A stretch of 64,000 bases of DNA from Pseudomonadota bacterium (GCA_027486675.1 JAIXOQ010000017.1:123986-187985), one strand, 5' to 3'; positions 1,967 to 64,000 are shown, counted from the stretch's first letter. Notes: a model not told the origin generated them from the letters alone. Numbers and translations: made by a program.

Positions 1967-2042
1967 GGGCCCTTAGCTCAGTTGGTAGAGCGCTTCCATG
2001 GCATGGAAGAGGTCAGCGGTTCGAACCCGCTAGGGTCCACCA
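1967..2042 (+). tRNA. tRNA-Ala (anticodon GGC)
   Basis: Cloverleaf read by eye. Acceptor GGGCCCT/AGGGTCC, D-arm GCTCAGTTGGTAGAGC, anticodon stem CTTCC/GGAAG with loop ATGGCAT (GGC), T-arm AGCGGTTCGAACCCGCT, encoded CCA. Close to E. coli tRNA-Ala(GGC). Confidence 0.85.
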
Positions 2043-7990: not shown

Positions 7991-8011
7991 GTATAGATTT
8001 TCCCTTTTTTC

Positions 8012-8524
8012 TTAAGCTGCTTGACGGGTTGCCTGGGCCTTTTTTGCAGTTGATTGGTCGTCGACATCTATGGCTTTCGCCATGTCTAAAAGTAAAACGA
8101 GTTTCTTGTCTTGCCGTGTTACTCCAATGATGTAGTCACTGGATTTATTACTCTGAATGTCGGGACGATCACTAATGTCTGATTCCCTAAGCGGCAACAC
8201 ACTGTTCACAGAGTTCACAACGATCCCGATACAAAGAGGTGCCAAATCACAAATGATCACTGCTGTCTCAGTATTCTGGTCCGCCTTAATCCCAAATTTC
8301 AGTCTGAGGTCGATCACAGAAATGACCTGGCCCCGAAGATTCATAATCCCGAGAAAGTGGGAAGGTGTGTATGGGATACGCGTGATATCTGGATAGGCTA
8401 TGACCTCCTTCACAGAGAGCAAAGGAACGGCGTAGGCTTCAGTTCCTAAAGAAAACTCTAAGAACCTCCTGAGTTCACCTGACTTTTCCTCAACCTGCTT
8501 CATACCCTCTTTGTCTTTAATCAT
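8012..8524 (-). CDS. cheW: Chemotaxis coupling protein CheW
   Basis: 170 aa with CheW-like domain (YAVPLLSVKEVIAYPDITRIPYTPSHFLGIMNLRGQVISVIDLR). Start overlaps the cheA stop (ATGA). Confidence 0.85.
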   Translation of the reverse strand: MIKDKEGMKQVEEKSGELRRFLEFSLGTEAYAVPLLSVKEVIAYPDITRIPYTPSHFLGIMNLRGQVISVIDLRLKFGIKADQNTETAVIICDLAPLCIGIVVNSVNSVLPLRESDISDRPDIQSNKSSDYIIGVTRQDKKLVLLLDMAKAIDVDDQSTAKKAQATRQAA

Positions 8525-10383
8525 GCGACTCCCCTTAGACTTTGTGTTGTTCGATCACGGCCCTGCGTACGATTCACGAGTTCTGCCACATCTAGAATCA
8601 GCGCTGCTTTTCCATCCCCAAGAATCGCTCCACCGGTAATTCCTTTAAGACTACGAATTTCAGCACCCAGCTGCTTAATGACCACCTGTTGCTGCCCGAT
8701 AATATCGTCAACCAGCACCGAAAATGCGTGATCGCCTGAGCGAACTACGATCGCAATCGCGGTCGATGGATCGATTGGTTTTACCTTTTGCCCTAGAAGG
8801 GTGCCTAACCGGTGCAAGGGTAGATTTTCCCCTCTTAGGCCAAGCACTTCTCCCATTCCAGTCACATAAGAGACATCTTCTTTTGCAGGTTGCAAAGATT
8901 CATGCACTTGGGTGATCGGAATGATGTACTTTTCTGTCCCTGCCTGAACGACCATGCCATCTATAATTGCGAGTGTCAGAGGGAGCAGAATCTTAAAACA
9001 GGTTCCCTTACCGAGCTCGGTCTGCAAAAGCACTTCACCGTGTAATATTTTCTCGACATTCGTTTTTACAACGTCCATCCCAACACCTCGGCCAGATATT
9101 TCTGTCACCTGACTGTGAGTTGAAAATCCAGGGGCAAAAACAAGGGCGTGACATTCAGCCTCTGTCAGCTTTTGCTCTGCTCGGATGATCCCTTTTTCAA
9201 TTGCTTTTTGGCGAAGCTTCTCAGCATTGAGGCCCTTCCCGTCATCCCTAATTTCTAAAACGATCTGATTCCCCTGGTGGTAAGCGTTGAGCGTAATGCG
9301 GCCAGCTTTTGACTTGCCCATCTGTTCACGTTCCTCGCCTGATTCGATTCCATGATCCACGGCATTCCTAATCAAATGGACTAAAGGATCGCCTAAATGT
9401 TCTACGACGGTTTTATCTAGCTCGGTCTCATCTCCTATGAGCTCAAGATGGATCTCTTTTCCAAGTATCTTAGACGTATCCCGAACTATGCGTTGCATCT
9501 TTTGAAATGTTTGCTTCAAAGGAACCATACGCAGGCTCATCGAAATGTCCTGAATATCCTTAGTAATTTTTGCAAGCTGACCAATTGTTTTCTGAACGAG
9601 TGGTGACTCAATATGCACTCGCTGCTGATCAAGCACCGTCTGCATAATCACAAGCTCGCCCACGTTATTCAGTAAGGTTTCAAGCCGCTTCAGGCTCACA
9701 CGAATATTTTCGTCCTGCACCTGTTGTGGCGGTTGAGCGGGACCTGCTTGGGGAGCTTGAACTGGAGCAGATACTGCTGCCGCTGGCGGGATTACTCGGG
9801 GCTCTACCTGGGAAGCTTCCGGTGTGGCTATGGGCTCAGCTTCGATGGATTCTCTCACTAAGGGGATGAGCTCCGCAAAATGTTCAGTCTCTTCCTCGGT
9901 CTTCACCTCAAAAGCGTCGGCAGATGGGTATTCAAGATCTACAGGAGAAGACGAGACCTCGAGTGGCTCCTCAGAGATAGCCTCGAGAACTACCGTCTTG
10001 CCACTCAATTGGGCGCGGATCTCCTCTAAGAGGGCTACGCTGTCCATCTTGGCTTCAAAATCGGCTTTTAAAGCATCAACCCAAACCCGCAGGTGGTCGT
10101 TGCACTGAAGAAGCAAACTCACGGTCGCAGTGTGGATCTGAAGTTCACGATTCTTTAATTTTAAAAGGAGGGATTCTAGTTCGTGGGTGAACTCACCCAT
10201 TTGGATAAATCCTACACCCCGTGCACTGCCTTTCAGATTGTGAGCAAGACGAAATATTTTCTCTAAGATAGAAGGGTCTTCTGAACGTGTTTCAAGGTCC
10301 AAGAAGCACTGTTCCGTGTCAGCGAGTAGCTGTGCCGCCTCATCTAGAAACCCAGCTTTTAATTCTCTTTCAAAGTCATCCAT
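8521..10383 (-). CDS. cheA: Chemotaxis histidine kinase CheA
   Basis: Hpt domain (FRLAHNLKGSARGVGF). HATPase_c (HLIRNAVDHGIE...GRGVGMDVV). C-terminal CheW-like regulatory domain. No fused receiver. Confidence 0.9.
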   Translation of the reverse strand: MDDFERELKAGFLDEAAQLLADTEQCFLDLETRSEDPSILEKIFRLAHNLKGSARGVGFIQMGEFTHELESLLLKLKNRELQIHTATVSLLLQCNDHLRVWVDALKADFEAKMDSVALLEEIRAQLSGKTVVLEAISEEPLEVSSSPVDLEYPSADAFEVKTEEETEHFAELIPLVRESIEAEPIATPEASQVEPRVIPPAAAVSAPVQAPQAGPAQPPQQVQDENIRVSLKRLETLLNNVGELVIMQTVLDQQRVHIESPLVQKTIGQLAKITKDIQDISMSLRMVPLKQTFQKMQRIVRDTSKILGKEIHLELIGDETELDKTVVEHLGDPLVHLIRNAVDHGIESGEEREQMGKSKAGRITLNAYHQGNQIVLEIRDDGKGLNAEKLRQKAIEKGIIRAEQKLTEAECHALVFAPGFSTHSQVTEISGRGVGMDVVKTNVEKILHGEVLLQTELGKGTCFKILLPLTLAIIDGMVVQAGTEKYIIPITQVHESLQPAKEDVSYVTGMGEVLGLRGENLPLHRLGTLLGQKVKPIDPSTAIAIVVRSGDHAFSVLVDDIIGQQQVVIKQLGAEIRSLKGITGGAILGDGKAALILDVAELVNRTQGRDRTTQSLRGVA

Positions 10384-10454
10384 ACCTGCACACCCTTACT
10401 CAAGTTTTCGGAAGCTTGAATCATTTACTTAAGAAGCCATTGATCTGAGGCCGT

Positions 10455-12671
10455 TTAAACGTCTTCGAAGCGGGGATCATCTTTTGACGGGACTTCAAAG
10501 TTTGCGCTCTTACCGGCTCCTACGGCTTCTTTATGCTCTGAAGGCACTGATTTCTCGGGCTGATTAGTTTTTGACGCTCGTCTTTTGGCAATAGGAACCA
10601 CATTCTCTTTCGAGTCACCACTACTGGTCGACTTAGGCGCATCGGTCTCGCTAGAACCGGAGGCGGCCTGCTGGGCGTCAAAACTCCCATTGATCACGAA
10701 GAACAGATCCCGCACCATTTGGCGAAGTTCTTCGGCCTGGGTGCTCAGCGACTCGGCTGAAGATGCTGTGCTTTGGGAAATTGCAGAGTTCTGCTGCGTG
10801 ACTTGGTCGAGCTGATTCATGGCTTTATTGATCTCGGCTACCCCCTGGGCTTGCTCCTGGGATGCTGATGAAATCTCGCCCACCATGCCATCCACTTCTT
10901 GAACAGTAGAGAGAATCTTGTTCAATACCTCTCCACACCGCGCTGCCACCTGCATTCCAAGGCCAACCTTCTCTTTGCTCTCGACTACGAGGCGTTCAAC
11001 CTCAGTTCTAGTCTCTGCTACAATCCCTTCTACCTTCTGGATGCTGGATTCGAGCATAGTAGAAATTTCTTTTGCCGCATTCCCACTCATTTGAGCAAGA
11101 TTCCCGACCTCCTCAGCAACTACAGCAAATCCCTTTCCATGCTCACCAGCGCGTGCCGCTTCGACAGAGGCATTAAAAGAGAGAAGCTTCGTCTGAAATA
11201 CGATGTCATTGATGACTTTTGTCTTGTTCCCAATCTCGCTAATGACTTTCACGATTTCACCAATTTGACGATTTCGCTCCTCGATCTGATTCATGATTGC
11301 TGTATTGCTGTCGCTGATGTCAGCAATCGATTTTGACATTTCTTGTACCGCCTCTTGCCCCTCTTCGGCAGTGGTTCGGCTCGTCTGTGAAACTTTCTGA
11401 GACTGACTTGCATTATCGGCACTCATTTTAACCATGGAACTGACTTCATCAATCGAAGCTGCAGTTTCTTGGATGGCCGCTGCCTGTTCTACGACTGCTT
11501 CTGAAAGACCTGTGCTTGAGCGGGAGATCTGAGAAGCTGCGTTAAATACCTCGTTTGATCCATGCGATAAACGACCCGCAAGACCTGACAGGCTCTTTGA
11601 GAGGGAAATCGCAAAGAAGTAAGAGATCAGCGATGCAAGTGCAATAACCACCGCAAAGATCCCGTAAAATATATTTTGAGCTTGGATGAGCGCGCTCATC
11701 GCCTCTTTCTGTGAATCCTTAACGAGCACAGACCACCCTATGCTATCTACAAACTTCCCACCACTGACCGGTACAAATCCAGCAATCTGCAAGTCGCCTG
11801 TTTTTGTGTTTTTCTCAAGAAGGGCTCCAGACTTCTTTGCTGATAAAGCCGCCCATGCTGCGCCAGTTTCAGTTTCTTTGAGTAGTCTGTTCCAGTCGTA
11901 CTTCGAATCACTCAGAACCTCTATCTTCGGGTCAGACGAGTACTCAAAGAGCACTGTCCCGTCATGGCGAACCATAGAAAGCTCAGAGCTTCCGAATCCA
12001 CTTTTCTTTAACCCTGCATAGAGCTCTTTAAAGGCGACTTCAAACCAACGTGAACCTGCACGGTTGGTGATCACTCCAATCACCTTGCCACTTGCGTTTT
12101 TGACCGCTGCACTGAAGCTTGATCCTAAACGATCTGAACCAAAAACCTTGCTAGTGTACGGATCAACGTGCACGTCTTCCACAAAAGTTCCTGCAAAAGC
12201 TTTCGCCTTATCTTCTGTGAATTTCCCCTCCATCACAGCTTTAAACCATGGGGCCTCTGAATAATTCTGTTCATAGAGAGGTTTTACAGCGATGTCTTCG
12301 CCACCAGGTGTTTTGCTGGAAGTAGCGACCAGGTGTCCTTTTGCATCGACCAACATGATCAGATCGTAGATGCCATAAAGTGCGCTCCAAGAGTTGAGCA
12401 TGTCTACGATCGATTGCTGGCTGCTCGCTTGAATTGCCGGGCTAATCGCAAAGGCCTGAACGTCGCCGTAACGCTCAAAGAACTGTGCGCCGATAGCATC
12501 ACTTAAGCTTCTGGCATAGGCTTCAAAGCTATCGAGCTGTGCCTTTTCTTGCGTGCCCACAATGTGCTTTAACACCCCCACAGAGGCGGCACCCAGAAGC
12601 ACCGTGATCCCCATGGAAAGAGCGATGAGTTTAAATTTAAGAGATTTGCCATTTTTCATTTGCTTGTTCAT
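10455..12671 (-). CDS. Methyl-accepting chemotaxis protein with periplasmic Cache-type sensor domain
   Basis: ORF 10455..12764. Likely start at internal Met ([26 protein letters not shown]). TM1, periplasmic Cache-like region, TM2, HAMP, MCP signalling domain ([44 protein letters not shown]). Confidence 0.85.
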
Positions 12672-12735
12672 CCGTGATTGCTCATCGGCAGGGCACAAAG
12701 AAAATGTAAAAAAATTAATGTAGACTAGCCGCAGC

Positions 12736-13518
12736 ATGACTTTAGCAGGCAAAACCACCGCCAATATTCCTTCACCCCCACTGCTTCTGATCGGAAAAGG
12801 AAAGCTAGCTCAGCACATGCAAACGTACTGCAAGCTCATGAATGCACCATTTCTGTGGCACAAAGACGCAAGAAGTCTAAACGATGACTTCAGCGCATTG
12901 TGTCAGACTGAGGTCGGGCGACTTAGACCGACCATGGCCTGGATACTGGTCTCGGATCGCGCAGTTCCTCTTGTCACAAGGGGAGTTCGCGCACTAGCCC
13001 CGCATTTAAAACTTTTTCACGCATCAGGTGCGCTTAAGGTGGAGGGCGCCACAGCTCTCCATCCCCTATTCACTTTTGGTCCCGACCCCTATCCACTTCA
13101 GATCTATCAGTCCTTCCCCCTCACATTGATCGGCAGAAGATGGGCAGATGAAGAAATACTCCTGCAATTTTGCTCTACCTACTTTTCTAAAAATCAAAGA
13201 CTTGAGTTCCATGAAGACCATCAGGCCTTTTACCACGCTCTCTGCGTGATGGTTTCTAACTTCCCTCAGATCCTTTGGGATATGAGCGGGACTGCACTTC
13301 AAGATAAAACTGGCGTGAATAGAACCGTCTTTACACCGATCATTCTGCAAGCAGCTGCGAATTTTGCACAGTCTGCAGACCGTGCACTGACCGGCCCTTT
13401 GGCTAGAGGTGATCAAGAGACGATAACTAAGAATTTAAGCGCGCTCGGTGAAACACCACTTCGCGGACTTTATGAAGCATTCCTTAAGAGTTACTCAAAA
13501 CCTTCGGAGGACACGTAG
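12736..13518 (+). CDS. Rossmann-fold / DUF2520-like putative oxidoreductase
   Basis: N-terminal dinucleotide-binding-like motif ([13 protein letters not shown]). C-terminal region contains a TGPLARGD motif reminiscent of DUF2520. Divergent from the che operon. Confidence 0.35.
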
Positions 13519-23414: not shown

Positions 23415-23756
23415 CTAAGCTTTCTTCGCGTCCACTTTGCGGTTAAATGTACGGCACCAGCCTTTAGCGGCGACTTCTCCCGTAGGAAAAATCGTGCATT
23501 TTCCATTCACCTTATCTACGGGGGAGTAGAAGGTGCAGTTTGCACAGACATCGTCATTCTTCTTTTTGAGCTTTTTCCACTCGTCGCTTTTCGTCGCGTC
23601 GTGGACGTAAGCCAAACTCAAAGCCAACCCCTTTTTTTCCTCAATGAGGGCGGAAAATGCCTCCCGAATCTTAAAAAATGGGGAAACGGCTACGGCTCCA
23701 ACAACCAGACCGAGCCTCTTCAAAAATTCTCTACGCTGCGTAAGATTGTCTTTCAT
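23415..23756 (-). CDS. High-potential iron-sulfur protein (HiPIP), Tat-secreted
   Basis: Twin-arginine signal (RREFLKRLGLVVGAVAV). Four Cys in HiPIP spacing (CANCTFY...GKCTIF...GWCRTF). 113 aa. Confidence 0.75.
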   Translation of the reverse strand: MKDNLTQRREFLKRLGLVVGAVAVSPFFKIREAFSALIEEKKGLALSLAYVHDATKSDEWKKLKKKNDDVCANCTFYSPVDKVNGKCTIFPTGEVAAKGWCRTFNRKVDAKKA

Positions 23757-23817
23757 TAGTTTAAACGTTTCCTTTCCCTTTCTATTCTACCCAAGATCGC
23801 TGACAATTAACCTTCGA

Positions 23818-26800
23818 ATGAAAGTACCGAGCCTGCAGGACCTAAAGCGCCTTGGTCCGCGACAACTGCGCCAAAGTCTTGAACCCTCTGCGTTAGAGAG
23901 GGGAGCCCAGTTTTTGCGCGAAGGCGCTTTTGATGGAATTGAAATTAGTCAGATGGGCTCATCCGGCCAACGGATCGAGTTTCAATTTGTCGATCCTGCC
24001 TACCCGCAGGCGCGCTGCAGCCTAGACGTTGAGTCCCCAGGCCGCCCCGTCTATACAGCGTGCGACTGCAATCACGCTTCTCACGGAATCTTCTGCAAGC
24101 ACCAAGCGGCCGCCGTTTTGGTCTGCGCCTATGCTCTAGGTGCAATCGATGAATTTGCCCGTCTCCCCGACCCCGTCCTTAAGAAAATTGATACCGTGGC
24201 TCCCGAACTGGAGCGCCTCAGGGCTCAGAGAGCCTCTGTTGAGGCAGCGGCTGCCAAGCAGAATGCTCCCGCCCTTCAGGCCATCATCCTCCTAGATCTC
24301 ATTGATATTGAGGCCCTTGAGCTCGAGCAAGTCGTTTTCACCCGCACATTTGAACGCCGTCCTCGGGACACTGCCTACGTTTCCTACCTTCGCCCTGGGG
24401 ATTTTGTTGACCTGGGTCGGACCCTCTATCTTTTCGACGATGGGACGCTGTGTCGATCCCGGGATCTTCCCTTCTTTGCGGGGGTGACCGATTTAGCTCC
24501 CGAGCTGATTCCTCAGTCGGAAACGCTCGCATCCTGGATCGCGTCCATCTCTCGGTTTCAACAGCTACGTGCACTTCCTGTGTTCCTTTCAAGCGTCGCT
24601 CGCTTTATGGAAGACCGTCGTGCAGTGCGTCTAAATGGCGTATTACCCCATGTTCCAGATGAATTGGAACGAGCACTCATTGCAGAACAACTCAAGGGTG
24701 AACCTGAAAAAGTTCGCGTCCGATATGAAGTTCCTGAAGCCCTCTGGTTACTGGGTGGCACCTTTGCTTTGCACCGGAAAGACGGAACGCTTTCACCCCA
24801 CCGCTTAGAGCGGGGCGGCCGAGCTCCAAGCGAAGGAATTTTTACGGCACCTGCAGAGCTTGCGAAATTTTCGCATCAACATGGCTCACTTGGCCTCAGG
24901 CTGACTGGAAAACAGAAGGTGCTTTCAGCAGATGAAATCACTCCTTGCGTCGAGCTGACTGATGCAGGGGAACTCTGTTTGACCCTGATCGCAAAGGATG
25001 GCTTAAAGCTCAATGGGTTAACTCCAGCGCAGATGCCGCTCCTTCGTGCGGGTCAAGAGGGTTTAAAATGGCTGATTCCTGAGGATTTCGAGCGCGAAAT
25101 CGAAGGAAAAAAATCCGCAAAGACCCCCACTCATCTCAAGCTCTTTAAACATGCGGGTGTTGCGCTTGTGGTGATTGAAGATTGCCTCTCCATGCTTCTT
25201 GCCGGCACACCTTGGAACGAAGAACAACAAACGAGGCTTGAAGCTAAGGTCGCAATCCTACTTCTTCGCTTAGAGGGCACAGTCGCCGGAGCATTACCTA
25301 AGACGCTGGAATCCATGACCTCCCGCGGAGCACTTGAGATCTTCAGAAAAATTCCAAACGCAATTCGTGATCTCACTTTAAACGCGCCGACGCTGACCTG
25401 GACCAATGGCCTTTGGATCACGATCCCTTCGTGGGGAGCGGTACAAGCTCGCGTCCTCCTTCACTGGCTAAGGGCTCTGTTTGAACTTCGCGGCGGCGAT
25501 CTTTGGTTAAGATCCCGTGATGCGTGGGTTGACCCTGAAGTCGTCGGTCTTTGGGATTCTGACCCAGGCGTAAAGGTCGGACCAAAACATTGGCTGAGAT
25601 TTCAAAATAAGAAACGATTTGAACTCGATCTTTTTCTGAAGGCGTTTTCAACGCTCCCTCAATTTGGTATCGGCATTCGTCTAAACGAGCTCCCAGTTGA
25701 AGAACTCACGGATTCAGACTGGAAGTCTGACTTCATGCTGAGCGAGATCGAACGCGCACCTGGCAAGATTGATTGGTTTGAGCTTCACCCTCGCTTCTAC
25801 CTCCGGGGTGCAGAAATTTCTGAGACACAGGCAAAAGAGCTCGCTGAACGTGGGATGCTCCGCCACAACGGTAAGGTTTTCCGCGTGGCTTCGTCTCTCC
25901 TTCCTCAGATGGAAGAATTGGCGCGCTTCTGGGAACAAATTCAACCCCTCACAGAAGCGAAAGCCACAAAGAAAAAAGCAGGCGAGGAGCGGATCTATCC
26001 ACTGGCCCGTCACGCAACTCTTGAGCTTTTGTTGCTGCGGGCTTCAGGCTTGCCGATCCGCGGTGGTCAGCACTGGGCAAATGTTTGTCAGTTTTATGAT
26101 CGTTTAGGCGAAGAACGTCCTCAATTTGAGATTCCAAAGACCTTCAAAGGGGAACTGAAGCCCTATCAGGTCCGTGGAGTCGAATGGATCCACGATCTTT
26201 ATCAACTGCGCATGGGCGGAATTCTTGCCGACGATATGGGTCTTGGGAAAACAGTCCAAACCTTAGCTTTTTTAGAACACCTGCGCCTCACCGGAGAACT
26301 CGGCCCCACCCTAGTGATCGTCCCTACTTCGCTCACCTTCAACTGGAAGAACGAATGCGAACGCTTTACACCTGGGCTTTCGATGCACCTCTTTCAGTCG
26401 CGTGCGATTGCTGACTATCAAAATTTTATTACGAAGAACCCTGGAAGCGTAGTCCTTGTGACTTATGGACTTCTCGCTGAACACGCAGAAATGTTCCAGC
26501 AAACTGCCTGGAATATTCACATCTACGATGAGGCGCAACATCTAAAAACCCTCACAGCAAAAAGAACGACCGCATCACGTCAAGTTCGCGCTGATTTTAA
26601 AATCTGTCTCACAGGAACGCCGCTTGAGAATCACTTAGGTGAGCTTTTCTCTCTTGTGGATCTCGTGGTGCCTGGAAGTTTAGGCTCGCTCGATCGTTAC
26701 AAACGGACCTACCTCACTTCATATGCGCCGGACCCTGAACGAGTGCGTTACCTCAAGTTAAAGACAAGGCCTTTGATTTTAAGGCGTACTAAGCGCGCGA

Positions 26801-27570
26801 TTCTGACTGAGCTTCCTGCAAAAACAGAAAGCTCCATGAAGATTCCGTTTACCGAAAAGCAACTCAAGATCTACCGCGATATTGCACTGTCTTGGAACTC
26901 CAAGGTGCGTGAGATCGTGGGTAAGGATGGCGAAGCCAAATCCCAGATGATCATGCTGACCGCGCTTTTGCGATTGCGCCAGGCTTGCTCTGCTCCTTCG
27001 GCGATTCCAAACGTGGAATACACGGAAACTCCGCCGAAAGTCTCCCTCTTGATCGACACCTTGTCTGAAGTGATTGAAACCGGTGAAAGTGCCCTGGTCT
27101 TCACTCAATTCATGAGCACCTTCCAAATCATTGCTAAAAAGCTCAAAGAGGCTCAGATCCCATTCTTTGAACTACACGGGAAGGTCTCGAGAAAAGACCG
27201 CGAAGATCGAATCACTTCGTTCCAAAACGCACAAGGCGGCACAGTCTTCTTGATGACTCTAAAAACCGGGGGCGTGGGCTTAAACCTCACCAAAGCAAGC
27301 TACGTCTTCCACCTAGAGCCTTGGTGGAACCCTGCTGTGGAAAACCAGGCAACCGATCGAACTCACAGGATTGGCCAAACGAAGCCGGTACAGGTTTATC
27401 GCTACATTATGAGCGATTCCGTCGAAGAAAAAATCGAGATCTTAAAACAGCGAAAGTCTGCGCAATTTGATGCGCTCTTTAGTGATGCGGAATCGACAGA
27501 TGACCTCTCCGGCAGCTCGGGTCGCTTGTCGCACTCAGACTTCGAGTACCTGCTTGGATTTGGAAAATGA
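23818..27570 (+). CDS. SNF2-family helicase with N-terminal SWIM zinc finger
   Basis: ORF from 23644, but the ATG at 23818 (MKVPSLQDLKRL) avoids overlap with the HiPIP gene. SWIM motif CDCNHASHGIFCKHQAAAV. SNF2_N (LKPYQVRGVEWIHDL...DDMGLGKTVQTLAFL, DEAQHLK). Helicase C (LMTLKTGGVGLNLT...QATDRTHRIGQTKPV). Confidence 0.85.
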   Translation: MKVPSLQDLKRLGPRQLRQSLEPSALERGAQFLREGAFDGIEISQMGSSGQRIEFQFVDPAYPQARCSLDVESPGRPVYTACDCNHASHGIFCKHQAAAVLVCAYALGAIDEFARLPDPVLKKIDTVAPELERLRAQRASVEAAAAKQNAPALQAIILLDLIDIEALELEQVVFTRTFERRPRDTAYVSYLRPGDFVDLGRTLYLFDDGTLCRSRDLPFFAGVTDLAPELIPQSETLASWIASISRFQQLRALPVFLSSVARFMEDRRAVRLNGVLPHVPDELERALIAEQLKGEPEKVRVRYEVPEALWLLGGTFALHRKDGTLSPHRLERGGRAPSEGIFTAPAELAKFSHQHGSLGLRLTGKQKVLSADEITPCVELTDAGELCLTLIAKDGLKLNGLTPAQMPLLRAGQEGLKWLIPEDFEREIEGKKSAKTPTHLKLFKHAGVALVVIEDCLSMLLAGTPWNEEQQTRLEAKVAILLLRLEGTVAGALPKTLESMTSRGALEIFRKIPNAIRDLTLNAPTLTWTNGLWITIPSWGAVQARVLLHWLRALFELRGGDLWLRSRDAWVDPEVVGLWDSDPGVKVGPKHWLRFQNKKRFELDLFLKAFSTLPQFGIGIRLNELPVEELTDSDWKSDFMLSEIERAPGKIDWFELHPRFYLRGAEISETQAKELAERGMLRHNGKVFRVASSLLPQMEELARFWEQIQPLTEAKATKKKAGEERIYPLARHATLELLLLRASGLPIRGGQHWANVCQFYDRLGEERPQFEIPKTFKGELKPYQVRGVEWIHDLYQLRMGGILADDMGLGKTVQTLAFLEHLRLTGELGPTLVIVPTSLTFNWKNECERFTPGLSMHLFQSRAIADYQNFITKNPGSVVLVTYGLLAEHAEMFQQTAWNIHIYDEAQHLKTLTAKRTTASRQVRADFKICLTGTPLENHLGELFSLVDLVVPGSLGSLDRYKRTYLTSYAPDPERVRYLKLKTRPLILRRTKRAILTELPAKTESSMKIPFTEKQLKIYRDIALSWNSKVREIVGKDGEAKSQMIMLTALLRLRQACSAPSAIPNVEYTETPPKVSLLIDTLSEVIETGESALVFTQFMSTFQIIAKKLKEAQIPFFELHGKVSRKDREDRITSFQNAQGGTVFLMTLKTGGVGLNLTKASYVFHLEPWWNPAVENQATDRTHRIGQTKPVQVYRYIMSDSVEEKIEILKQRKSAQFDALFSDAESTDDLSGSSGRLSHSDFEYLLGFGK

Positions 27571-33936: not shown

Positions 33937-34013
<77 letters not shown>

Positions 34014-54800: not shown

Positions 54801-56474
54801 CTATTCTTCTTGAAACTCTGCCTTATTCCAAATGCTCTCTAGCCCCGTCCCTACACCCATGTCATAGCGTGACGATGGTTTAAATAAGTGCTCCCCTTGA
54901 AAAGTCGCTTTACAGTCTTCAAAGGTTATTAGAATTAGGCGACCTGTTTTTTGAGAGCGGGTGAAGCTTGTCACCACTCCTTCTACGATTACTCCAGATT
55001 GAAATTCAAGTTTAACCCTCTCACCTGGCACGATTCCCTTGTCGCCGAGTTGTGAATCTGACAGTTCCTCAAGCAGACTTCGGTCCCGCAGCCGTCCTAC
55101 CGGGGTTCCATAACCGCCGACATGCTGCTCAAATCCTTGTCCTGGAATAAACTCTTTCCTATCCAAAAGTCTGCTCGGGCCAATGGTTTGCACATATGCG
55201 GGGTTTCCATACTTATCGGCAATCGCCCGAAAGAGTGTACCTTCGATCTCAAGGCCTGATGTCATCACTAAGACCACCGGAAGATTGAAGAATTCAACCA
55301 GGGGTAATTCCACTTTAGGACGCACTACTCCTAGACCAATGGTTTCTAGGAACTGGGCGCGAGCGCCTATAGAGAATGACTCTTCTATAAATCGCTCAAG
55401 CAGGGCAACAGACGCCTGATGTCGCTGATGCAAGGTCTTTGAAAGGTCAGCCCACAATTGCTTTTCGCTCATTGTCCCGGTCATCCTAAATGAAGTAGAA
55501 GCGGCATTCATAGCTGCATAGAGAACATTTACACTGTACTGGCGAATGCGTTTTCCAAGATCTTCTTGCTCAAACCGCGATCTATTTTGCCTCTGCAGTA
55601 ACGTTGCAACATCCCTTTCAAGCACCCAGTACTCCGCAAGAGCAACGCGTGCAAGATCGATCTTCGATAAACCTCCGAGCCCCTCAGTGCGGATCCTTTT
55701 CATTTGAACTTCGAAGGACGCGGAGCTTACCGGAGTCAGGGTTTGCGCTCCATCGACTTTCATATGCTTTGCCCAATCACTTAAGGATTGAAGCACCCTG
55801 CCGTAAGACTTCAAAGATAGATGTTCTTCAATAGCTGAACTGAAGAAACGTGGATATAAAGTGAGCGGAATCATTCCGAAGAATCCCGCACCAAAGAGCC
55901 ACTCGGCCACCGCGCCCAAAGCAATGGATGCACCTACGACGACGACGAACGGCTTATCTACATGGCTCGGCCAGTTCGAGACGATTGTTTTCAATTCTTC
56001 TTCCGGCAAAGCAAGCACGCTGATGGAAGCGATAGCGATAGTCCCTTCAATGAAGCCGTAACCAGATTCATGCTGTATTGCTGCCCGCCAGGCCTGCAAT
56101 TCCCCCTGCATTGGCCATTTAAGTGAAGCCTCGACGCCATCCCAAAGTCTTTCAACGCTATTGAGTGTTTGGACAACGACGCGACGCCAATGTTTTGATT
56201 CTTTCCACTTCGTCACCCAATCAAGCCCAGACTTTTTGCCGACCAACTCACGCGCAAAGGCAAGACGCATCTCAGTCGGCATGGCCTCTACAACCGACAG
56301 CCATTTCATCGCTGTGCCAGTCTCATTTAAAATTTCACTGAAGTAGGAAGACGCACCCTCTGATGAAAAACTACAGATGCGCTGAACCCTTTGGGACTGT
56401 CTTGGATGATTATCCGCAAAGGCACGAGGATGAACGCTTAAAAAAATCGCCGCAACAATCAGCAATAATCGCAT
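54801..56474 (-). CDS. Hypothetical secreted protein (557 aa)
   Basis: Signal peptide (LLIVAAIFLSVHPRAFA). No confidently recognised domain. Confidence 0.4.
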   Translation of the reverse strand: MRLLLIVAAIFLSVHPRAFADNHPRQSQRVQRICSFSSEGASSYFSEILNETGTAMKWLSVVEAMPTEMRLAFARELVGKKSGLDWVTKWKESKHWRRVVVQTLNSVERLWDGVEASLKWPMQGELQAWRAAIQHESGYGFIEGTIAIASISVLALPEEELKTIVSNWPSHVDKPFVVVVGASIALGAVAEWLFGAGFFGMIPLTLYPRFFSSAIEEHLSLKSYGRVLQSLSDWAKHMKVDGAQTLTPVSSASFEVQMKRIRTEGLGGLSKIDLARVALAEYWVLERDVATLLQRQNRSRFEQEDLGKRIRQYSVNVLYAAMNAASTSFRMTGTMSEKQLWADLSKTLHQRHQASVALLERFIEESFSIGARAQFLETIGLGVVRPKVELPLVEFFNLPVVLVMTSGLEIEGTLFRAIADKYGNPAYVQTIGPSRLLDRKEFIPGQGFEQHVGGYGTPVGRLRDRSLLEELSDSQLGDKGIVPGERVKLEFQSGVIVEGVVTSFTRSQKTGRLILITFEDCKATFQGEHLFKPSSRYDMGVGTGLESIWNKAEFQEE

Positions 56475-58038: not shown

Positions 58039-60228
58039 ATGCGTTTTGCTAGGATCTGCGCTCTCCCACTGGTGCTCGCGCTCTGTGCGCCCATCCTTGC
58101 GCGATCCCAAACCGAGTTATCCAAACCAACAAATCCACCCAGCCGCGCAGAAGGTTCCTGGACCGCTGATGCGATCGCCGGAATGATTGCTAGCCGCGCA
58201 ACAATAGCCCACCGGTGGCCAGAGTTTTCAGATCCAGCTCCTTACGTTCAAGCGCCAGTCCTCACACGTTTCGCCGGGTACACAATGCTCATTCATGCAC
58301 TATCGCTAAGCTTTCCTGAGCACTACCCGCAAGTCTCTGTCCCGCATCTTGAAGACCTAAAAAAACCTCTGATCGAACATGAAATGAGAATGTCCCCGGA
58401 ACAACCGACTCGTGTGGATATCGAGTCCCTGCGGAAGCTCAAGGCGATTTCGGGTCCAAGCTCCGTAGAGGCAAGTTCGAAGCTGGCGCTTTCGATCGAA
58501 ATGATGGCCTCAGGTTACTCTCGGACCAACAGAAATTCTTATGACCTTCTGGAAGGTCTTGTCAGGAATCTCTCAGATGAGGAAAGACAGATTTTTAAGA
58601 AACGCGACGATGAACACAGGCTGGGCTATCTACTTGATCCTGATTTGGCGGCATTCAAGGCGCACTTCGAAATGGAGACAGCCTTAGCATGGGACCTCAT
58701 TCACCGGGTACTTTCCTCATTCTCCGATAAGGACCTCGTGGAAGATCCAATCCAGGTCATCAGCACTCTCCGCCACCCAAGTCTCCTCGCAAAGCACATA
58801 CCTAAAAGCTGGGGAATCTCTGCTGAGTCCCATTTTAGAATCGCACGCTTACTCGCACGGAGAATCGCAAAAATCGCAAAAGAACAAGTTGGCGCATTGA
58901 GAATCCCTCATCCTAAAGACCAGGACATACTTAGGAATCCATGGAATTTTAAACTCATTGAAGTCCCGATGTGGCTTGCATTGTTACGCGGCTTCGCGGG
59001 GAATGACTGCAGTACAGACTCCTGCACTTACTCCCCACTTCACCCGGACGAGACAGTCTTTTTTATCGAGGATACTGCAACGGGGAAGCTCCTGGGCTAT
59101 GCACAAGTTAGGAAGGTCGTGGCATCTGGCACTGATAACGAACAACCGAATTCAGGGGCCACTTACTTTATTCATACAGTAACCGGCCTTGGAATACAGG
59201 CGAGCCAGGTGCGTCCAATTTTGGGCGCAGTCATCTTGGTTCTTAGTGAAAAAGGTCCTGGCAGTCAATTTTTGATTCCAACTGATCCAGCAATACTCAA
59301 CTCACTCATCAATCGAAAACGGATCCAGAATGTATTTGCGGATGGGTTTGAAGGAAAAGAGGTCACTTTAGCGCCCACCTTAGAATCGATCTGGAGCGTA
59401 CTCTCGAAGATCCAGCCCAACTCCGATGAGGATCCGAGCGTCACCCAGAAAGGACTACTCCTCAGTCTAGAACAAACACAGAACCTCAGAAAAAGAATTG
59501 AAAAGACAGAGGAAAAAAAGACCTTCCTCAGAGCAACCGAGGAGGAAATTGGCGAGGGATTGAAATCTCAGTTTATGGTGGCGTATTCCGCTTTGCCAAA
59601 GAGTTTTGCTAACGATGTGGACGAGTCTCATTGGTATATCGAATTCGCGAATGCACTTCAACATCCCATGTTTAAAAGGTACGCGCTCGGGAAAACTAGA
59701 CGACGAAGACATGCGGAAATTAGAGATGAGGGACAGGGGGTAGTGCTTAGATACTTAGACGTCCTATCGCTTCATGCCGACGAATTGCGGGTTCCGAATT
59801 TAGTGCTTCAACTTGAAGGGCTAGGCCTGCCGAAGTTACAGTCCAAATTGATTGCAGGGATATTTGCAAATATGAAGCGCCTTCAGCGCAGACCTAAAGA
59901 AAGCCGCGTCCTTCGGAATCTTAGCGAAAATATCCGGGATACAAAGGCCTTGTTAGAATCTTCGGGCAACCTAGCATTCGCCCCAATTGGTGATGCGCTA
60001 GCGGTAATCCTTCACGGTCGAGCGCAAGAGCTCGCCCAACAGATCAGCTCGAATGCGGGCAGATCATACTCTTTGGCTAACGCGTTGATTGACCTTTCAC
60101 CCAGAATAGCGGAGACCTCCATGTACACGAAGCCCTTAGAAGAATGGGAGAATGGCACTTCGATTGAACACAGGATTTGCAGATATATTGTCGATCAAAA
60201 ACTAGCCACAGAAGTGCAGCCGCACTAG
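58039..60228 (+). CDS. Hypothetical secreted protein (729 aa)
   Basis: Signal peptide (ALPLVLALCAPILARSQ). No recognised domain. Confidence 0.45.
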   Translation: MRFARICALPLVLALCAPILARSQTELSKPTNPPSRAEGSWTADAIAGMIASRATIAHRWPEFSDPAPYVQAPVLTRFAGYTMLIHALSLSFPEHYPQVSVPHLEDLKKPLIEHEMRMSPEQPTRVDIESLRKLKAISGPSSVEASSKLALSIEMMASGYSRTNRNSYDLLEGLVRNLSDEERQIFKKRDDEHRLGYLLDPDLAAFKAHFEMETALAWDLIHRVLSSFSDKDLVEDPIQVISTLRHPSLLAKHIPKSWGISAESHFRIARLLARRIAKIAKEQVGALRIPHPKDQDILRNPWNFKLIEVPMWLALLRGFAGNDCSTDSCTYSPLHPDETVFFIEDTATGKLLGYAQVRKVVASGTDNEQPNSGATYFIHTVTGLGIQASQVRPILGAVILVLSEKGPGSQFLIPTDPAILNSLINRKRIQNVFADGFEGKEVTLAPTLESIWSVLSKIQPNSDEDPSVTQKGLLLSLEQTQNLRKRIEKTEEKKTFLRATEEEIGEGLKSQFMVAYSALPKSFANDVDESHWYIEFANALQHPMFKRYALGKTRRRRHAEIRDEGQGVVLRYLDVLSLHADELRVPNLVLQLEGLGLPKLQSKLIAGIFANMKRLQRRPKESRVLRNLSENIRDTKALLESSGNLAFAPIGDALAVILHGRAQELAQQISSNAGRSYSLANALIDLSPRIAETSMYTKPLEEWENGTSIEHRICRYIVDQKLATEVQPH

Positions 60229-60357
60229 CGGTTTTGACTAGATTGAGGTCCGCAAGAGCGGACCATTTGGTATCCGAACTTATGAGCCACTCTGCTCGCC
60301 ATCTGCCCCTAGGCTGCTGAATCATCCGAACGTGGCTATTCTACTGCAACTCATCCT

Positions 60358-61230
60358 TTAAGGTCGTTGTCGTTCAGGAATCAGCACCGTAAAAGTACTT
60401 CCACGCCCTAAAAAACTATCCACTAAGATCTCTCCGCCTAGTTTTTCCAAGATTGCCCTCGAAGAGGAAAGACCCAAGCCAGTTCCTTGCCCTTTGGGCT
60501 TTGTCGTAAAGAAGGGCTTAAAGAGCTCCTTTAGATTTTCGTCACTAATTCCAACCCCATTATCTGCAATCGCTACCCTGACAAATTTTTTTTCTAAGCT
60601 AGTCCGGATCACAATGCGTCCGCGTTTTTCAATTGCATGAGCCGCGTTGATCAAAAGACTCATGAGCACCTGCAGTAACGCGCCTGTATCAGTGATCATT
60701 TTGGGCACTACTCCAAACTCTTTGACTACCTCACACTTGTACTTTAATTCATTTGCAGCCACTCGAAGTGCCGCCTCAATACACTCATGAATGTCCGTTT
60801 CCTGAGTGGTCTCAGTGGAAACATTTGTAAAGACCTTGAGGCTTCGGATTGTTTCTGATATTCGGCAAACACCAATTAAGCACTCCTCTGCAAGTATGCT
60901 TTGATCCTTAAGAACGAAGTTAAAGTCCGGATCGTTCAGGAGGACCTGGACGCCATGAAGTCTTGTGCTGGTCGCATTCGTACCCTCTTTACCCAGGTCT
61001 GCTACTAAAGTCCGCACTTCGCCCACAAATTGCAGCATCTTATCCTGATAGATCTTGAGCGTCTCTAGATTGGACTGAACATAACCCAGTGGATTGTTGA
61101 TCTCGTGCGCGACACCTGCTGCGATCATGCCGATGGAAGCAAGTTTTTCAGACTGAATGAGCTGCTGCTGGGAGGCGATGAGGTGAAACTCATCCTTCTG
61201 GTCTAGCTTCTTGGATCGGCTTTGCGGCAT
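60358..61230 (-). CDS. Soluble sensor histidine kinase (HisKA + HATPase_c, no sensor domain)
   Basis: H-box (MIAAGVAHEINNPLGYV). N/G boxes (NAAHAI...DNGVGI...GTGLGLS). No TM segment. Confidence 0.8.
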   Translation of the reverse strand: MPQSRSKKLDQKDEFHLIASQQQLIQSEKLASIGMIAAGVAHEINNPLGYVQSNLETLKIYQDKMLQFVGEVRTLVADLGKEGTNATSTRLHGVQVLLNDPDFNFVLKDQSILAEECLIGVCRISETIRSLKVFTNVSTETTQETDIHECIEAALRVAANELKYKCEVVKEFGVVPKMITDTGALLQVLMSLLINAAHAIEKRGRIVIRTSLEKKFVRVAIADNGVGISDENLKELFKPFFTTKPKGQGTGLGLSSSRAILEKLGGEILVDSFLGRGSTFTVLIPERQRP

Positions 61231-61647
61231 TTATGCTGCCACCCTCTCATCATTGAGCGCCAGGAGATGCTCCACTGTTTGAGCAAACCGATCTAGGTGA
61301 AAGGGTTTTGGAAGAAAGGGCGGACACTCCCTAGCATTCTTCTCTTTCATCAAACTGAGAAATGACTCCGTGCCCATCCCTGACATCAGCAAAAAGGGAA
61401 TTCCGCTGCTTTGAATTGCAGGATGCTCCCACAATTCAAGGCCGAATCTCAGATTCGGGAGAAAGTAGTCGCAGATGATCAAATTGGGACGATTCGCCTG
61501 CAGGTACTCAAAGCTATCTTCAAGGCTTCCCACACACTCGACCCGAGCATGGGGGGCAATCGTACGAATCGCACGCTTCATAGAACTCCACAGAAGCGTT
61601 GAATCCTCAACCACAAGAATCGTCACTGCGTTCGAAGTGTTTTCCAT
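61231..61647 (-). CDS. Single-domain response regulator (receiver)
   Basis: ILVVEDS, phospho-acceptor context LIICDYFLP, LMSGMG, LPKP. 138 aa. Confidence 0.65.
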   Translation of the reverse strand: MENTSNAVTILVVEDSTLLWSSMKRAIRTIAPHARVECVGSLEDSFEYLQANRPNLIICDYFLPNLRFGLELWEHPAIQSSGIPFLLMSGMGTESFLSLMKEKNARECPPFLPKPFHLDRFAQTVEHLLALNDERVAA

Positions 61648-61655
61648 AATACTCC

Positions 61656-62258
61656 TTATATTGTATGAACCAGACCATCCAAGGCCTTAAGCAGCTCTTC
61701 TCTTTGAAAAGGTTTTGCGACAAAACCCGCAGCACCTAAACTCATCGCCTCCTGAACTCGACCCGAAACATCTCCGGAAACAATCATCACTTTAGTCTTT
61801 TTTTGCAGCAGATCATTCCTGCTCAGGGCCTTCAAAACCTCTATCCCGTCCATACCGGCCATGTGGATATCTAAAGTCATCACGTCCGGAGAAAACGAAG
61901 CGATCTGAAGACCGGCTTCAAACCCTCCTAACGCAATTTGAGTTTCATATCCCGCTAAGCGGAGGATCCGCTCTAATGAATGCGCAAACGGCAGATCATC
62001 CTCAACGATCAAGACTCTTCGCGGGCCAGACACCTTTTTTGCCGCTAACCATTCGTCGGGCAAGGGCATGCCATTCTGTTGCATAAACCGAATGAGGCTT
62101 TCGACGCTGATCCTATGATCACCGCGACCGGGCAACCGAGTGGCCTCGAGCTGCCCCCGCTGAACCCACCGAATCACCGTACGAAAGTTAACACCACAGT
62201 AGCGAGCGGCCTGCCCCGTCGTTAGGAATTGGTCGAGATGATCTGTCCCATTTGCCAC
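61656..62258 (-). CDS. Response regulator with N-terminal MerR/excisionase-type HTH and C-terminal receiver
   Basis: HTH (LTTGQAARYCGVNFRTVIRWVQRGQLEA). REC (RVLIVEDDLPFAHSL...DVMTLDIHMAGMDG...IVSGDV...KP). Confidence 0.7.
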   Translation of the reverse strand: MANGTDHLDQFLTTGQAARYCGVNFRTVIRWVQRGQLEATRLPGRGDHRISVESLIRFMQQNGMPLPDEWLAAKKVSGPRRVLIVEDDLPFAHSLERILRLAGYETQIALGGFEAGLQIASFSPDVMTLDIHMAGMDGIEVLKALSRNDLLQKKTKVMIVSGDVSGRVQEAMSLGAAGFVAKPFQREELLKALDGLVHTI

Positions 62259-62475
62259 CCCTTTAGAGTAGTCCTACAGAACCTAATTGGTCAAGCTTGA
62301 GAACCTGACTTTCATGACAATGCAAGAACATGAGTTACTCTTAACATTATTGCCCAATAATTTCAATTACTTAGCATATTTGTCTGAAATTAAGGCTTGG
62401 TCGGTTTGACAGGTTAATGCACTTCGTTATATTATTATTTTAGTCAGGAATAGCGGTCACTCGCTAGAAAAGGAA

Positions 62476-62859
62476 ATGGACATGAAGGCCAGAATACTTC
62501 TCATCGACGACAGCAAGATACTCCGCACCTTGCTCGGAAAAATTGTAGAGCGTGCGGGCCATGAAGTCGCAGGATACGGCGAGGATGGCGTCCAAGGGCT
62601 ATCTCTCTTCCTCTCTACCAAACCTGATTTCACTTTAATGGATGTCACCATGCCCAACATGAGCGGCAAGGAATGCCTTGAGGCCATCCTGAAACACTCA
62701 CCTCACGCAAAGGTCATCATGATCTCGGGCCTTGCGGATCCAGAGATCGAAAAAGATTGTCTCAGACTTGGAGCAAAGGCCTTTATCTCCAAATCTGATC
62801 TCACGAGCTCTGGTGCCCTTGAAAAGCAACTGAACGAAGTCTTGAAGAGATTTCAGTAA
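62476..62859 (+). CDS. CheY-like single-domain response regulator
   Basis: ILLIDDSKILRTLL, DFTLMDVTMPNMSG, MISGL, ISKS. 127 aa. Confidence 0.8.
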   Translation: MDMKARILLIDDSKILRTLLGKIVERAGHEVAGYGEDGVQGLSLFLSTKPDFTLMDVTMPNMSGKECLEAILKHSPHAKVIMISGLADPEIEKDCLRLGAKAFISKSDLTSSGALEKQLNEVLKRFQ

Positions 62860-62874
62860 GCCCAAGGACAAAAA

Positions 62875-64000
62875 ATGGAAAACAACGAAGCTCAGAAAAA
62901 AATCACCTCCGACGTCACAGAACGGTTTGCACAAGAAACAGCTGCAATCTTTAACGGTCTACTTCAATCTCCAGGAAAGGCGAGCAGCATCACCGCCCTG
63001 AGTGACTCACTGCAAAGTCAAAGATCTATTTTTGTTTCGGTCTACTTTACTGGGCTGGTCTATGGTGAGTTTATCTTGGCGCTAGATGAAGATACTGCGA
63101 CGGAGGCAATTCGAAGAAGCGGCCTTTCCGATGAACTCTTCAGCAATCCAAATGAAAAGCTCCGCATCGACCAGTTTGGTGCGATTACAGAAGCCTTAAA
63201 CATCATTGTCGGGACAACACTTCAAATCCTGACGCTTACTTTTGACAAGCTCACAATTACAGCGCCTAGGGTCTACTTCGGAAAGATTCAATATCCTAAG
63301 CTGCTCACAGGCATGCAGTCCGTTGACCTCGGATTTGGATCTATAGATTGCCACTTCTATTACGATCAAATGCAACTCGATCTTGCAGTTTCTTATCAGG
63401 ACACACTTCAAAGTCTGATCACAACGAACCGTGCATTAAATCAAGTAAACGAGAAGCTGAAAGAACAACAGGCTCAGTTGGTTCACTCAGAAAAGATGGC
63501 CTCTTTGGGGATGATGGCTGCTGGTGTGGCACATGAAATCAATAACCCTCTCGCATACGTGGATAGCAACATTTCAACGCTCGAAGATTATTCCAATATC
63601 GCACAAACGCTTCTCACTACTCACGAGCGACTGCTTCATTCGTTTGTTAGAAAAGACCAAAGAATACTGGAAAAGTCCATTGGTGAGATCGATGAAATTA
63701 GAAAAAAAGATGACTTCTCTAGGATACTCAAAGACACAAAAGACATCTTCGAAGAAACAAGGTTTGGGATTAAGCGAATTAAAGAAATTGTCCTTGGCCT
63801 AAAAAGTTTCTCCCACTTAGACCAGGAGGTCTTTAAGGCTATAGACATCAACGAGCAGCTCGAAAACATGCTGCGATTAGTTGCGAACCAACTCAAATAT
63901 AAGTGCGATGTACAGAGAGAATACGGGGAATTGCCTCCGGTTCACTGCTTCCCAGGGCCACTCAATCAAGTCTTTGTGAACCTACTTGTGAATGCGGCGC
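62875..64000 (+). CDS. Partial CDS: CheX/CheC-like phosphatase-type domain fused to a histidine kinase (continues beyond window)
   Basis: Own translation from the ATG at 62875 (frame 1) has no stop to the window end. N-terminal domain carries a CheC/CheX-type E-x2-N motif (QFGAITEALNIIVG). Then HisKA H-box (MAAGVAHEINNPLAYV). Absent from the ORF track because it has no stop. Confidence 0.7.
   Translation, partial: MENNEAQKKITSDVTERFAQETAAIFNGLLQSPGKASSITALSDSLQSQRSIFVSVYFTGLVYGEFILALDEDTATEAIRRSGLSDELFSNPNEKLRIDQFGAITEALNIIVGTTLQILTLTFDKLTITAPRVYFGKIQYPKLLTGMQSVDLGFGSIDCHFYYDQMQLDLAVSYQDTLQSLITTNRALNQVNEKLKEQQAQLVHSEKMASLGMMAAGVAHEINNPLAYVDSNISTLEDYSNIAQTLLTTHERLLHSFVRKDQRILEKSIGEIDEIRKKDDFSRILKDTKDIFEETRFGIKRIKEIVLGLKSFSHLDQEVFKAIDINEQLENMLRLVANQLKYKCDVQREYGELPPVHCFPGPLNQVFVNLLVNAA

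Follow-up and report, generated by a model that had tools for sequence, protein, structure and literature searches.

A CheY-like receiver gene and a CheX-domain histidine kinase gene form a recurrent pair in a Pseudomonadota genome and at related loci

The 64,000-nucleotide (nt) stretch of a Pseudomonadota bacterium analyzed here (GCA_027486675.1 JAIXOQ010000017.1:123986-187985; hereafter the window) ends in a two-component gene cluster in which a gene for a CheY-like single-domain receiver is followed by a gene for a histidine kinase with an N-terminal CheX-family domain, the CheX-kinase. CheX is a small free-standing enzyme that inactivates phosphorylated CheY where chemotaxis pathways reach the flagellum. 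In the window it is the sole domain that a histidine kinase has besides its catalytic core, and the kinase gene is bound to that of a CheY-like protein in a two-gene unit. The pair is a real and recurrent architecture, uncharacterised and made of known parts. If the CheX domain is a reader of phosphorylated CheY, it would explain how che operons with neither cheY nor a motor output feed gene regulation or cyclic di-GMP signalling, as well as how soluble kinases devoid of sensors receive their input, and it would represent a direct relay from Che to two-component systems of a kind so far undescribed. The proteins are small and soluble and their catalytic residues are known, so that these hypotheses are directly testable in vitro.

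The CheX-kinase gene runs off the end of the window. Its full length was obtained from a Logan contig (L026, 7,855 nt), found through a protein (P0139) that is identical to the second kinase of the cluster, HK1, and is present in both NCBI and Logan. Contig and window overlap by 6,736 bases without a single mismatch, and the contig reaches 1.1 kb further; it ends in Illumina adapter-like sequence, and its last ~30 nt are not genomic. The stop codon falls at the window-equivalent position 64302, 302 nt past the window, giving a complete protein of 475 amino acids (aa); an earlier note on this DNA, which had only the partial gene, had proposed this recovery as a check. The protein is composed of an N-terminal CheX domain, a helical connector, a dimerisation and histidine phosphotransfer (DHp) domain with His220, and a complete HATPase_c domain. 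Three nt after its stop begins an open reading frame (ORF) of at least 267 aa (equivalent positions 64305..65100, plus strand), for which we found no Pfam match and no counterpart in related loci.

As a single sequence, the N-terminal domain gives only modest scores. Pfam CheX (PF13690, CheC-like clan) falls short of its gathering score of 27, with 21 bits (E = 3.5e-4), and NCBIfam CheX_Thtogales reaches 1.5e-3. The best phmmer match in the PDB is the Borrelia CheX chain 3hzh_B at E = 0.71, in which TEALNIIVG is aligned with TEVGNIIAG. Word-indexed protein searches with the domain or with its family alignment returned no relatives. When 1.84 billion representatives were scanned exhaustively with HMMER, using residues 1-189 of the CheX-kinase as query, 133 relatives were identified, and in all 133 the matched region lies at or near the N-terminus. 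Pfam CheX is matched by 93 of the 109 relatives that were scanned, with a best value of 7e-11. When a profile built from 30 relatives was compared with the PDB, CheX structures were recovered at E-values from 4.6e-9 to 3e-6 (3hzh_B at 4.6e-9, 3hm4 at 4e-7 and Thermotoga maritima 1squ/1xko at 6e-7). Every hit with E < 1e-3 belongs to the CheX/CheC family, one of them being the CheC-like FliY, and two weaker hits are CheC. The AlphaFold (AF2) model of the CheX-domain segment, computed on the same 30-relative alignment, has a predicted local distance difference test score (pLDDT) of 91.7 and a predicted TM-score (pTM) of 0.82; the single-sequence model of the CheX-kinase is of low confidence (pLDDT 38). 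In a Foldseek comparison of the alignment-based model with the PDB, the 13 best matches, at E = 2e-11 to 6e-8 and target-normalised TM-scores (TMt) of 0.68-0.79, are without exception CheX or CheX-like chains, and FliY, CheC and FliM rank after them.

The active-site residues point the same way. The E-x2-N motif (63190..63201) places Glu106 (63190..63192) and Asn109 (63199..63201) on the helix spanning residues 102-120, with Pro131 downstream, and this region aligns to the corresponding residues of 3hzh_B and 1squ. Among the relatives, Glu106 is kept in 131/133, Asn109 in 132/133 and Pro131 in 110/133. A CheC would have two such motifs in about 200 aa; residues 1-200 of the CheX-kinase contain no second one, and this single site is therefore the pattern of CheX and not of CheC. 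CheC structures also rank below CheX in the profile and fold searches alike. Judged by its profiles and predicted fold, the N-terminal domain is a CheX-family domain with intact active-site residues. Since it makes up the first ~168 residues of a 475-aa kinase, and is not a stand-alone protein of about 150 aa, the CheX-kinase is a CheX-domain protein and not a CheX orthologue. The earlier note had read the start of the partial gene as a CheC/CheX-type domain with an E-x2-N motif and had staked that reading on a match to CheX or CheC profiles; the match was found, together with the fold and the conserved E-x2-N...P residues, and the reading holds.

Regarding the remainder of the protein, its H-box and complete HATPase_c domain identify it by sequence as a class-I (HisKA-type) histidine kinase. 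The phospho-acceptor His220 lies within AHEINNPL, HATPase_c covers residues 362-467 of the full-length protein (Pfam, 1.8e-28), and the N, G1, F and G2 boxes of the ATP-binding domain are all present (NLLVNAAQA, DNGCGI, FDPFFSTK and GTGLGLS). Pfam HisKA stays below threshold (21.7 versus 26.9), and the DHp region aligns with the T2SS_HK, AtoS and EspC kinase models of NCBIfam and with HK1 (39% identity). The fusion of the N-terminal domain to a HisKA/HATPase core, proposed from the partial gene, is confirmed, the class-I core being complete in the contig. The 475-aa protein ends after HATPase_c and contains no receiver or Hpt domain; matches to H-kinase_dim and CheW domains are equally lacking along its full length, so that the Hpt P1, dimerisation P3 and CheW-like P5 domains that define CheA are absent. 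An intramolecular phospho-relay had also been suggested for this protein; we rejected it, because a protein with neither receiver nor Hpt offers no such relay. No membrane-spanning hydrophobic segment was found in the CheX-kinase or in HK1.

The CheY-like protein encoded upstream has, as read from its translation, an acidic pocket (D11/D12), the phospho-acceptor Asp56, Ser84 and Lys105. Its best NCBIfam matches are a CheB receiver and CheY_Halo, all below cutoffs, and no database record of the exact protein was found. The gene ends 15 nt before the start of the CheX-kinase gene. In order to place this arrangement, neighbourhoods were collected by exact-protein look-ups and by a metagenome scan with a 6-sequence alignment, and were scored with local hidden Markov models; the sole hit of a scan of genome contigs was an unrelated kinase from Geobacteraceae (L001). 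In the window as in 17/17 other assessable CheX-kinase loci (L023 being fragmentary, and three further loci at contig ends being left out), the kinase gene is directly preceded on its own strand by a single-domain receiver ORF of 126-142 aa, with gaps of -16 to +68 nt between the two genes. These receivers are 37-56% identical to the CheY-like protein of the window. The pairing spans three kinase classes, hybrid kinases with a receiver of their own (L024, L032) among them, and at L007 the CheY-like gene likewise precedes a kinase whose ATPase domain is CheA-like. As the gene is kept beside both of these types, the pairing follows the CheX domain across kinase classes. The suggestion that the domain serves as a phosphatase or sink for the CheY-like output, made earlier together with the relay, is plausible from sequence and is backed by this strict gene pairing; only its relay part failed. 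Directly downstream of the first CheX-kinase of L007, a PAS-HisKA-HATPase-REC hybrid kinase (8045..10615, plus strand) begins with another CheX-like domain, more distant than the first, and a CHASE8-HAMP-Hpt-HATPase kinase is encoded directly upstream of the CheY-like gene; together these kinases could form a possible multi-kinase cascade.

The surroundings of the pair vary. Housekeeping genes enclose it at three loci (L016, L017, L019), divergent REC-HDOD genes lie near it at two (L002 and L012), and a REC-HD-GYP gene together with an HTH-REC fragment is found near it at the locus of the closest relative (L009). A gene for a methyl-accepting chemotaxis protein (MCP) is directly upstream of the pair at L005. 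At L004 a complete che operon (CheA, CheW, MCP, CheR-REC-CheB) is directly downstream, and it has no cheY or phosphatase gene other than those of the pair. The window itself also contains a complete che operon, of the order MCP-CheA-CheW-CheR-REC-REC-CheB, in which neither cheY nor CheX was found. This operon is collinear with that of L004 (CheA 46%, CheW 54% and CheB 55% identical). Across the 64 kb, scanning turned up no single-domain CheY-type receiver apart from the one at 62476, although the divergent REC138 went undetected, and the CheX-kinase is the only ORF with a CheX domain. From these sequence observations we infer a functional link between the che operon of the window and the CheY-like/CheX-kinase pair.

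The way in which the CheX domain is joined to its kinase is also regular. In the AF2 model a helix of residues 169-191 extends to the end of the modelled segment, and the low-confidence single-sequence model has helices at 165-202 and 206-227; the connector between CheX and DHp is accordingly predicted to be a continuous helix. In 28 relatives that share the kinase class of the CheX-kinase, exactly 114 aa separate the catalytic Glu from the acceptor His; in 12 relatives of another kinase class the distance is 101 aa. Among the relatives, the CheX-type domain precedes HPK4-like HisKA and ATP-binding cores, the type present in the CheX-kinase of the window; another HisKA subfamily, whose members have a C-terminal receiver and sometimes Hpt and in several cases come from metagenome-assembled genomes of Bdellovibrionales; and Hpt...HATPase proteins, some distant relatives carrying Hpt...HATPase or CheW. 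It also heads one GAF-kinase-REC-REC protein and three GGDEF diguanylate cyclases of 336-352 aa (L027, L028, L030). One of the Hpt...HATPase relatives is labelled in IMG as 'signal transduction histidine kinase/CheY-specific phosphatase CheX'. This distribution suggests that the CheX domain behaves as a modular N-terminal input domain across five output types. Near the diguanylate cyclase gene of L027 there are also genes for a HAMP-Hpt-HATPase kinase, a CheX-Hpt-HATPase kinase (P0057), a REC protein and an HDOD protein.

Combining these observations, we propose the following mechanism. The plus-strand operon encodes a CheY-like receiver and then a soluble, dimeric class-I kinase with CheX as its sole N-terminal domain. 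The CheY-like protein would be loaded by a CheA-type kinase, for which the cheY-less che operon at 4.6-12.8 kb is the candidate. The CheX domain would dock the phosphorylated CheY-like protein and hydrolyse its aspartyl-phosphate through Glu106 and Asn109, as free-standing CheX does, and its occupancy would set the activity of the kinase core; such gating is suggested by the sensor position of the domain and by the fixed-length helix that leads to the DHp domain. The core would then pass the signal to other receivers, the candidates being the HTH-REC regulator and the split kinase REC138/HK1 of the divergent operon, both described below. The module could thus both terminate a chemosensory-type signal and relay it to a two-component pathway. 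That the CheX domain reads and dephosphorylates the CheY-like protein and gates the core, with CheA loading the receiver and the core signalling onward, is the reading towards which we lean, tentatively and with somewhat less than even confidence. In its favour we count the che operon behind the pair at L004, the MCP at L005 and the window operon without cheY and CheX. A broader claim is possible and is offered with more reserve: the CheX fold would have become a cytoplasmic input domain of a new class, one that reads a dedicated phosphorylated CheY-like protein, terminates its own signal by hydrolysis and relays CheA output to class-I or hybrid-kinase or diguanylate-cyclase signalling.

Several observations weigh against this mechanism. 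At L016, L017, L019 and L010 the pair stands among housekeeping genes with no other signalling gene, and there a cognate kinase and regulator of the usual sort would be the simplest interpretation. The che operon of the window is 50 kb from the pair, and the view is limited to these 64 kb. Contrary to expectation, an adjacent upstream CheY-like gene is present at none of the three CheX-GGDEF loci, and adjacency may therefore track the kinase rather than the CheX domain. Finally, the DHp domain of the CheX-kinase keeps the H-E-x-x-N motif, which in other HisKA kinases supports an intrinsic phosphatase activity, so that the need for CheX is not obvious.

Alternatively, the pair could be self-contained, the kinase core loading its cognate CheY-like protein and the tethered CheX domain unloading it, with no input role for CheX; the ratio of kinase to phosphatase would then be fixed at 1:1 and the pool of phosphorylated CheY-like protein would be short-lived and robust to concentration. 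Adjacent kinase and regulator genes are usually cognate, the pair stands alone among unrelated genes at several loci, and the CheX-GGDEF relatives have no adjoining CheY-like gene, all of which would fit. A precedent also exists in the kinase-phosphatase CheA3 of Rhodobacter sphaeroides, which acts on CheY6 (PMC2924250, PMC6829392). However, such a kinase would have no input domain, and this explanation does not account for the CheY-like gene upstream of hybrid kinases that have their own receiver, for the same CheX domain on GGDEF and GAF-kinase proteins, or for the fixed length of the connector. Moreover, the L004 operon has a CheA whose only cheY is the gene of the pair. On balance we consider a self-contained pair somewhat unlikely.

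The two remaining explanations concern the domain itself. The CheX domain could be an active phosphatase tethered to the kinase of a different pathway and not coupled to it, so that the two would share no more than location and expression. CheC/CheX domains are indeed fused elsewhere to chemotaxis proteins, to FliY and to the CheA of Leptospira (PMC10542144), and the conserved catalytic residues would be expected of such an enzyme; yet a fixed Glu-to-His spacing with a connector predicted as a continuous helix is not what a flexible linker would give, and all five output types have the domain at the N-terminus, which together make an uncoupled phosphatase improbable. A degenerate CheX fold, limited to binding or dimerisation like the middle domain of FliM and incapable of hydrolysing acyl-phosphate, is in our view very unlikely. 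It would agree with the single-sequence Pfam score below the gathering threshold and with the presence of non-catalytic binders (FliM and other CheC-fold proteins) among the fold matches, but the Foldseek E-values of CheX structures are 4-5 orders of magnitude better than those of FliM, and Glu106, Asn109 and Pro131 are retained among the 133 relatives at the frequencies given above.

Two operons that diverge from a 217-nt AT-rich spacer occupy the last 3.6 kb of the window (Table 1). The five genes lie where the earlier note places them, and their types agree with the translations and with Pfam, including the CheY-like protein, the bare receiver and the HTH-REC regulator that lie between the two kinases. 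A promoter candidate with 11/12 consensus matches lies in the spacer, upstream of the cheY-like gene; promoter-type sites in the spacer are in total no more frequent than in shuffled sequence, and it is therefore a candidate only. The canonical acidic pocket, acceptor Asp and Ser/Thr plus Lys can be read from the translations of all three receivers of the cluster. The HTH_17-REC regulator has a reversed domain order, with an N-terminal DNA-binding domain of the MerR/excisionase type (HTH_17) followed by a C-terminal receiver, and is a candidate for the cluster's output at the level of transcription. The closest related locus (L009) has a partial homologue of 52% identity, which is likewise divergent from the module.

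HK1 is a bare soluble core of DHp and ATP-binding domains, with His42 as phospho-acceptor; its NCBIfam match is T2SS_HK-like, at 248 bits versus a cutoff of 450. It is preceded by REC138, whose TAA stop abuts the ATG of HK1 in the same frame (...GCA GCA TAA ATG...). The lengths of the two proteins sum to 428 aa (138 + 290), and 23 of 120 HK1 relatives are kinases with a fused N-terminal receiver, of 396-484 aa and mostly of 416-430 aa; none has a C-terminal receiver. A relative 85% identical to HK1 starts at the same Met, which indicates that the split form has been kept. Taken together, the abutting genes, the summed length, the fused relatives and the shared start suggest that REC138/HK1 looks like a conserved and stable split REC-kinase, in which REC138 is probably the detached input receiver of HK1. 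Both kinases of the cluster appear, from their sequences, to have no ligand sensors and to take their input from receiver phosphorylation.

The likeness of the two kinases does not require a local event. The core of the CheX-kinase and HK1 are 39% identical over 192 aa (E = 5e-41), and their H-boxes agree at 25/32 positions. Both cores come from a very large subfamily, in which hits of E < 1e-20 number over 7,800; over 100 unrelated kinases in the databases are 42-50% identical to HK1 and hence closer to it than its neighbour, and 61 of its 120 top unrelated relatives match its H-box at 25 or more of the 32 positions. The H-box likeness is thus a signature of the subfamily. The idea that this likeness shows a recent local duplication or a shared partner specificity was rejected, since those 61 relatives do equally well or better. 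The claim of a nearly identical H-box in duplicated cores therefore stands as to the likeness, and the word 'duplicated' goes too far.

Table 1. Coordinates of the two-component cluster and of the che operon in the window
Feature	Position	Strand	Evidence or remarks
CheY-like single-domain receiver, 127 aa	62476..62859	+	Response_reg 7.2e-21
CheX-kinase gene, open at window end	62875..64000 (375 codons in window)	+	
CheX-family domain (aa 1 to ~168)	62875..63378	+	profile, fold, catalytic residues
Predicted helical connector (aa ~169-205)	63379..63489	+	last CheX strand into DHp helix
DHp and start of ATP-binding domain	63490..64000	+	H-box SEKMASLGMMAAGVAHEINNPL, His220 at 63532..63534
Candidate sigma-70-like promoter	62406..62435	+	TTGACA, 16-18 nt spacer, TATATT/TATTAT
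HTH_17-REC regulator, 200 aa	61656..62258	-	HTH_17 7.2e-10, Response_reg 4.4e-22
REC138 bare receiver, 138 aa	61231..61647	-	Response_reg 9.8e-10
HK1 kinase core, 290 aa	60358..61230	-	HATPase_c 1e-22, weak HisKA
che operon MCP-CheA-CheW-CheR-REC-REC-CheB	4662..12764	-	Pfam
MCP	10455..12764	-	
CheA	8521..10383	-	Hpt, dimerisation and CheW-like domains all present
CheW	8012..8524	-	
CheR-REC fusion	6086..7990	-	
REC-CheB	4662..6089	-	

Near the cluster, an ORF of 729 aa (58039..60228, plus strand) has no Pfam or NCBIfam match; its N-terminus has a hydrophobic stretch resembling a signal sequence, and a terminator-like hairpin (60247..60264) lies after the ORF. A second ORF near the cluster, of 557 aa (54801..56474, minus strand), also has no Pfam match. 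Elsewhere the window encodes an SNF2-family helicase of 1,308 aa (23644..27570, plus strand), whose N-terminal region of ~830 aa has no Pfam match, and two tRNAs, tRNA-Ala(GGC) at 1967..2042 and tRNA-Met(CAT) at 33937..34013, both on the plus strand, which are the only Rfam/ARAGORN hits in the window.

Our literature searches retrieved no account of a HisKA-type kinase fused to CheX, although at least one protein of this kind is already labelled as such by automatic annotation. Comparison with known systems shows which parts are shared. The free-standing CheX proteins (T. maritima 1XKO/1SQU, and Borrelia burgdorferi 3HZH with CheY3) have the same fold as the window domain, with a single E-x2-N on the second long helix and a Pro some 21-22 residues further on, and the CheX-kinase gene likewise adjoins a cheY-type gene. 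In contrast to these proteins of ~155 aa, the window domain forms the N-terminus of a 475-aa class-I kinase, is joined by a helix to its DHp domain, and is only 13-19% identical to the solved CheX proteins. The REC-kinase fusions found among the relatives of HK1 resemble the window kinases in their long DHp, their HEINNPL-type H-box and an input through phospho-receiver chemistry. They differ in that REC138 is encoded by a separate, translationally abutting gene, whereas in the CheX-kinase the receiver appears from sequence to be replaced by a domain that would bind a phosphorylated receiver in trans.

Fusions of CheA with CheC/CheX are described in the F1 systems of Leptospira, for which a dual kinase/phosphatase function was proposed (PMC10542144). 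Like the window protein, they join a CheC/CheX-type phosphatase domain to a histidine kinase; the kinase there is a class-II CheA with Hpt, dimerisation and CheW-like domains, whereas the DHp of the window protein is of the HisKA type, its phospho-acceptor His sits in the dimerisation helix, and Hpt and CheW domains are absent. CheA3 of R. sphaeroides, a bifunctional kinase-phosphatase that acts on CheY6 and needs CheA4 for its phosphorylation (PMC2924250, PMC6829392), is also similar in that one polypeptide combines a phosphodonor function with a dedicated phosphatase domain for a single-domain CheY. Compared by description only, its phosphatase region differs in being part of CheA3 and not a CheX domain. 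To our knowledge that region is unrelated to the CheX fold. The Che3 system of Myxococcus xanthus is based on a cheY-less che operon (MCP, CheA, CheW, CheB and CheR) that is integrated with CrdS/CrdA (PMC3147164), and as in our proposal the output of such an operon meets a separate pair of histidine kinase and response regulator. In Che3, however, CheA3 is coupled directly to the NtrC-like CrdA, with no CheY-like intermediate and no CheX-domain kinase (PMC3147164).

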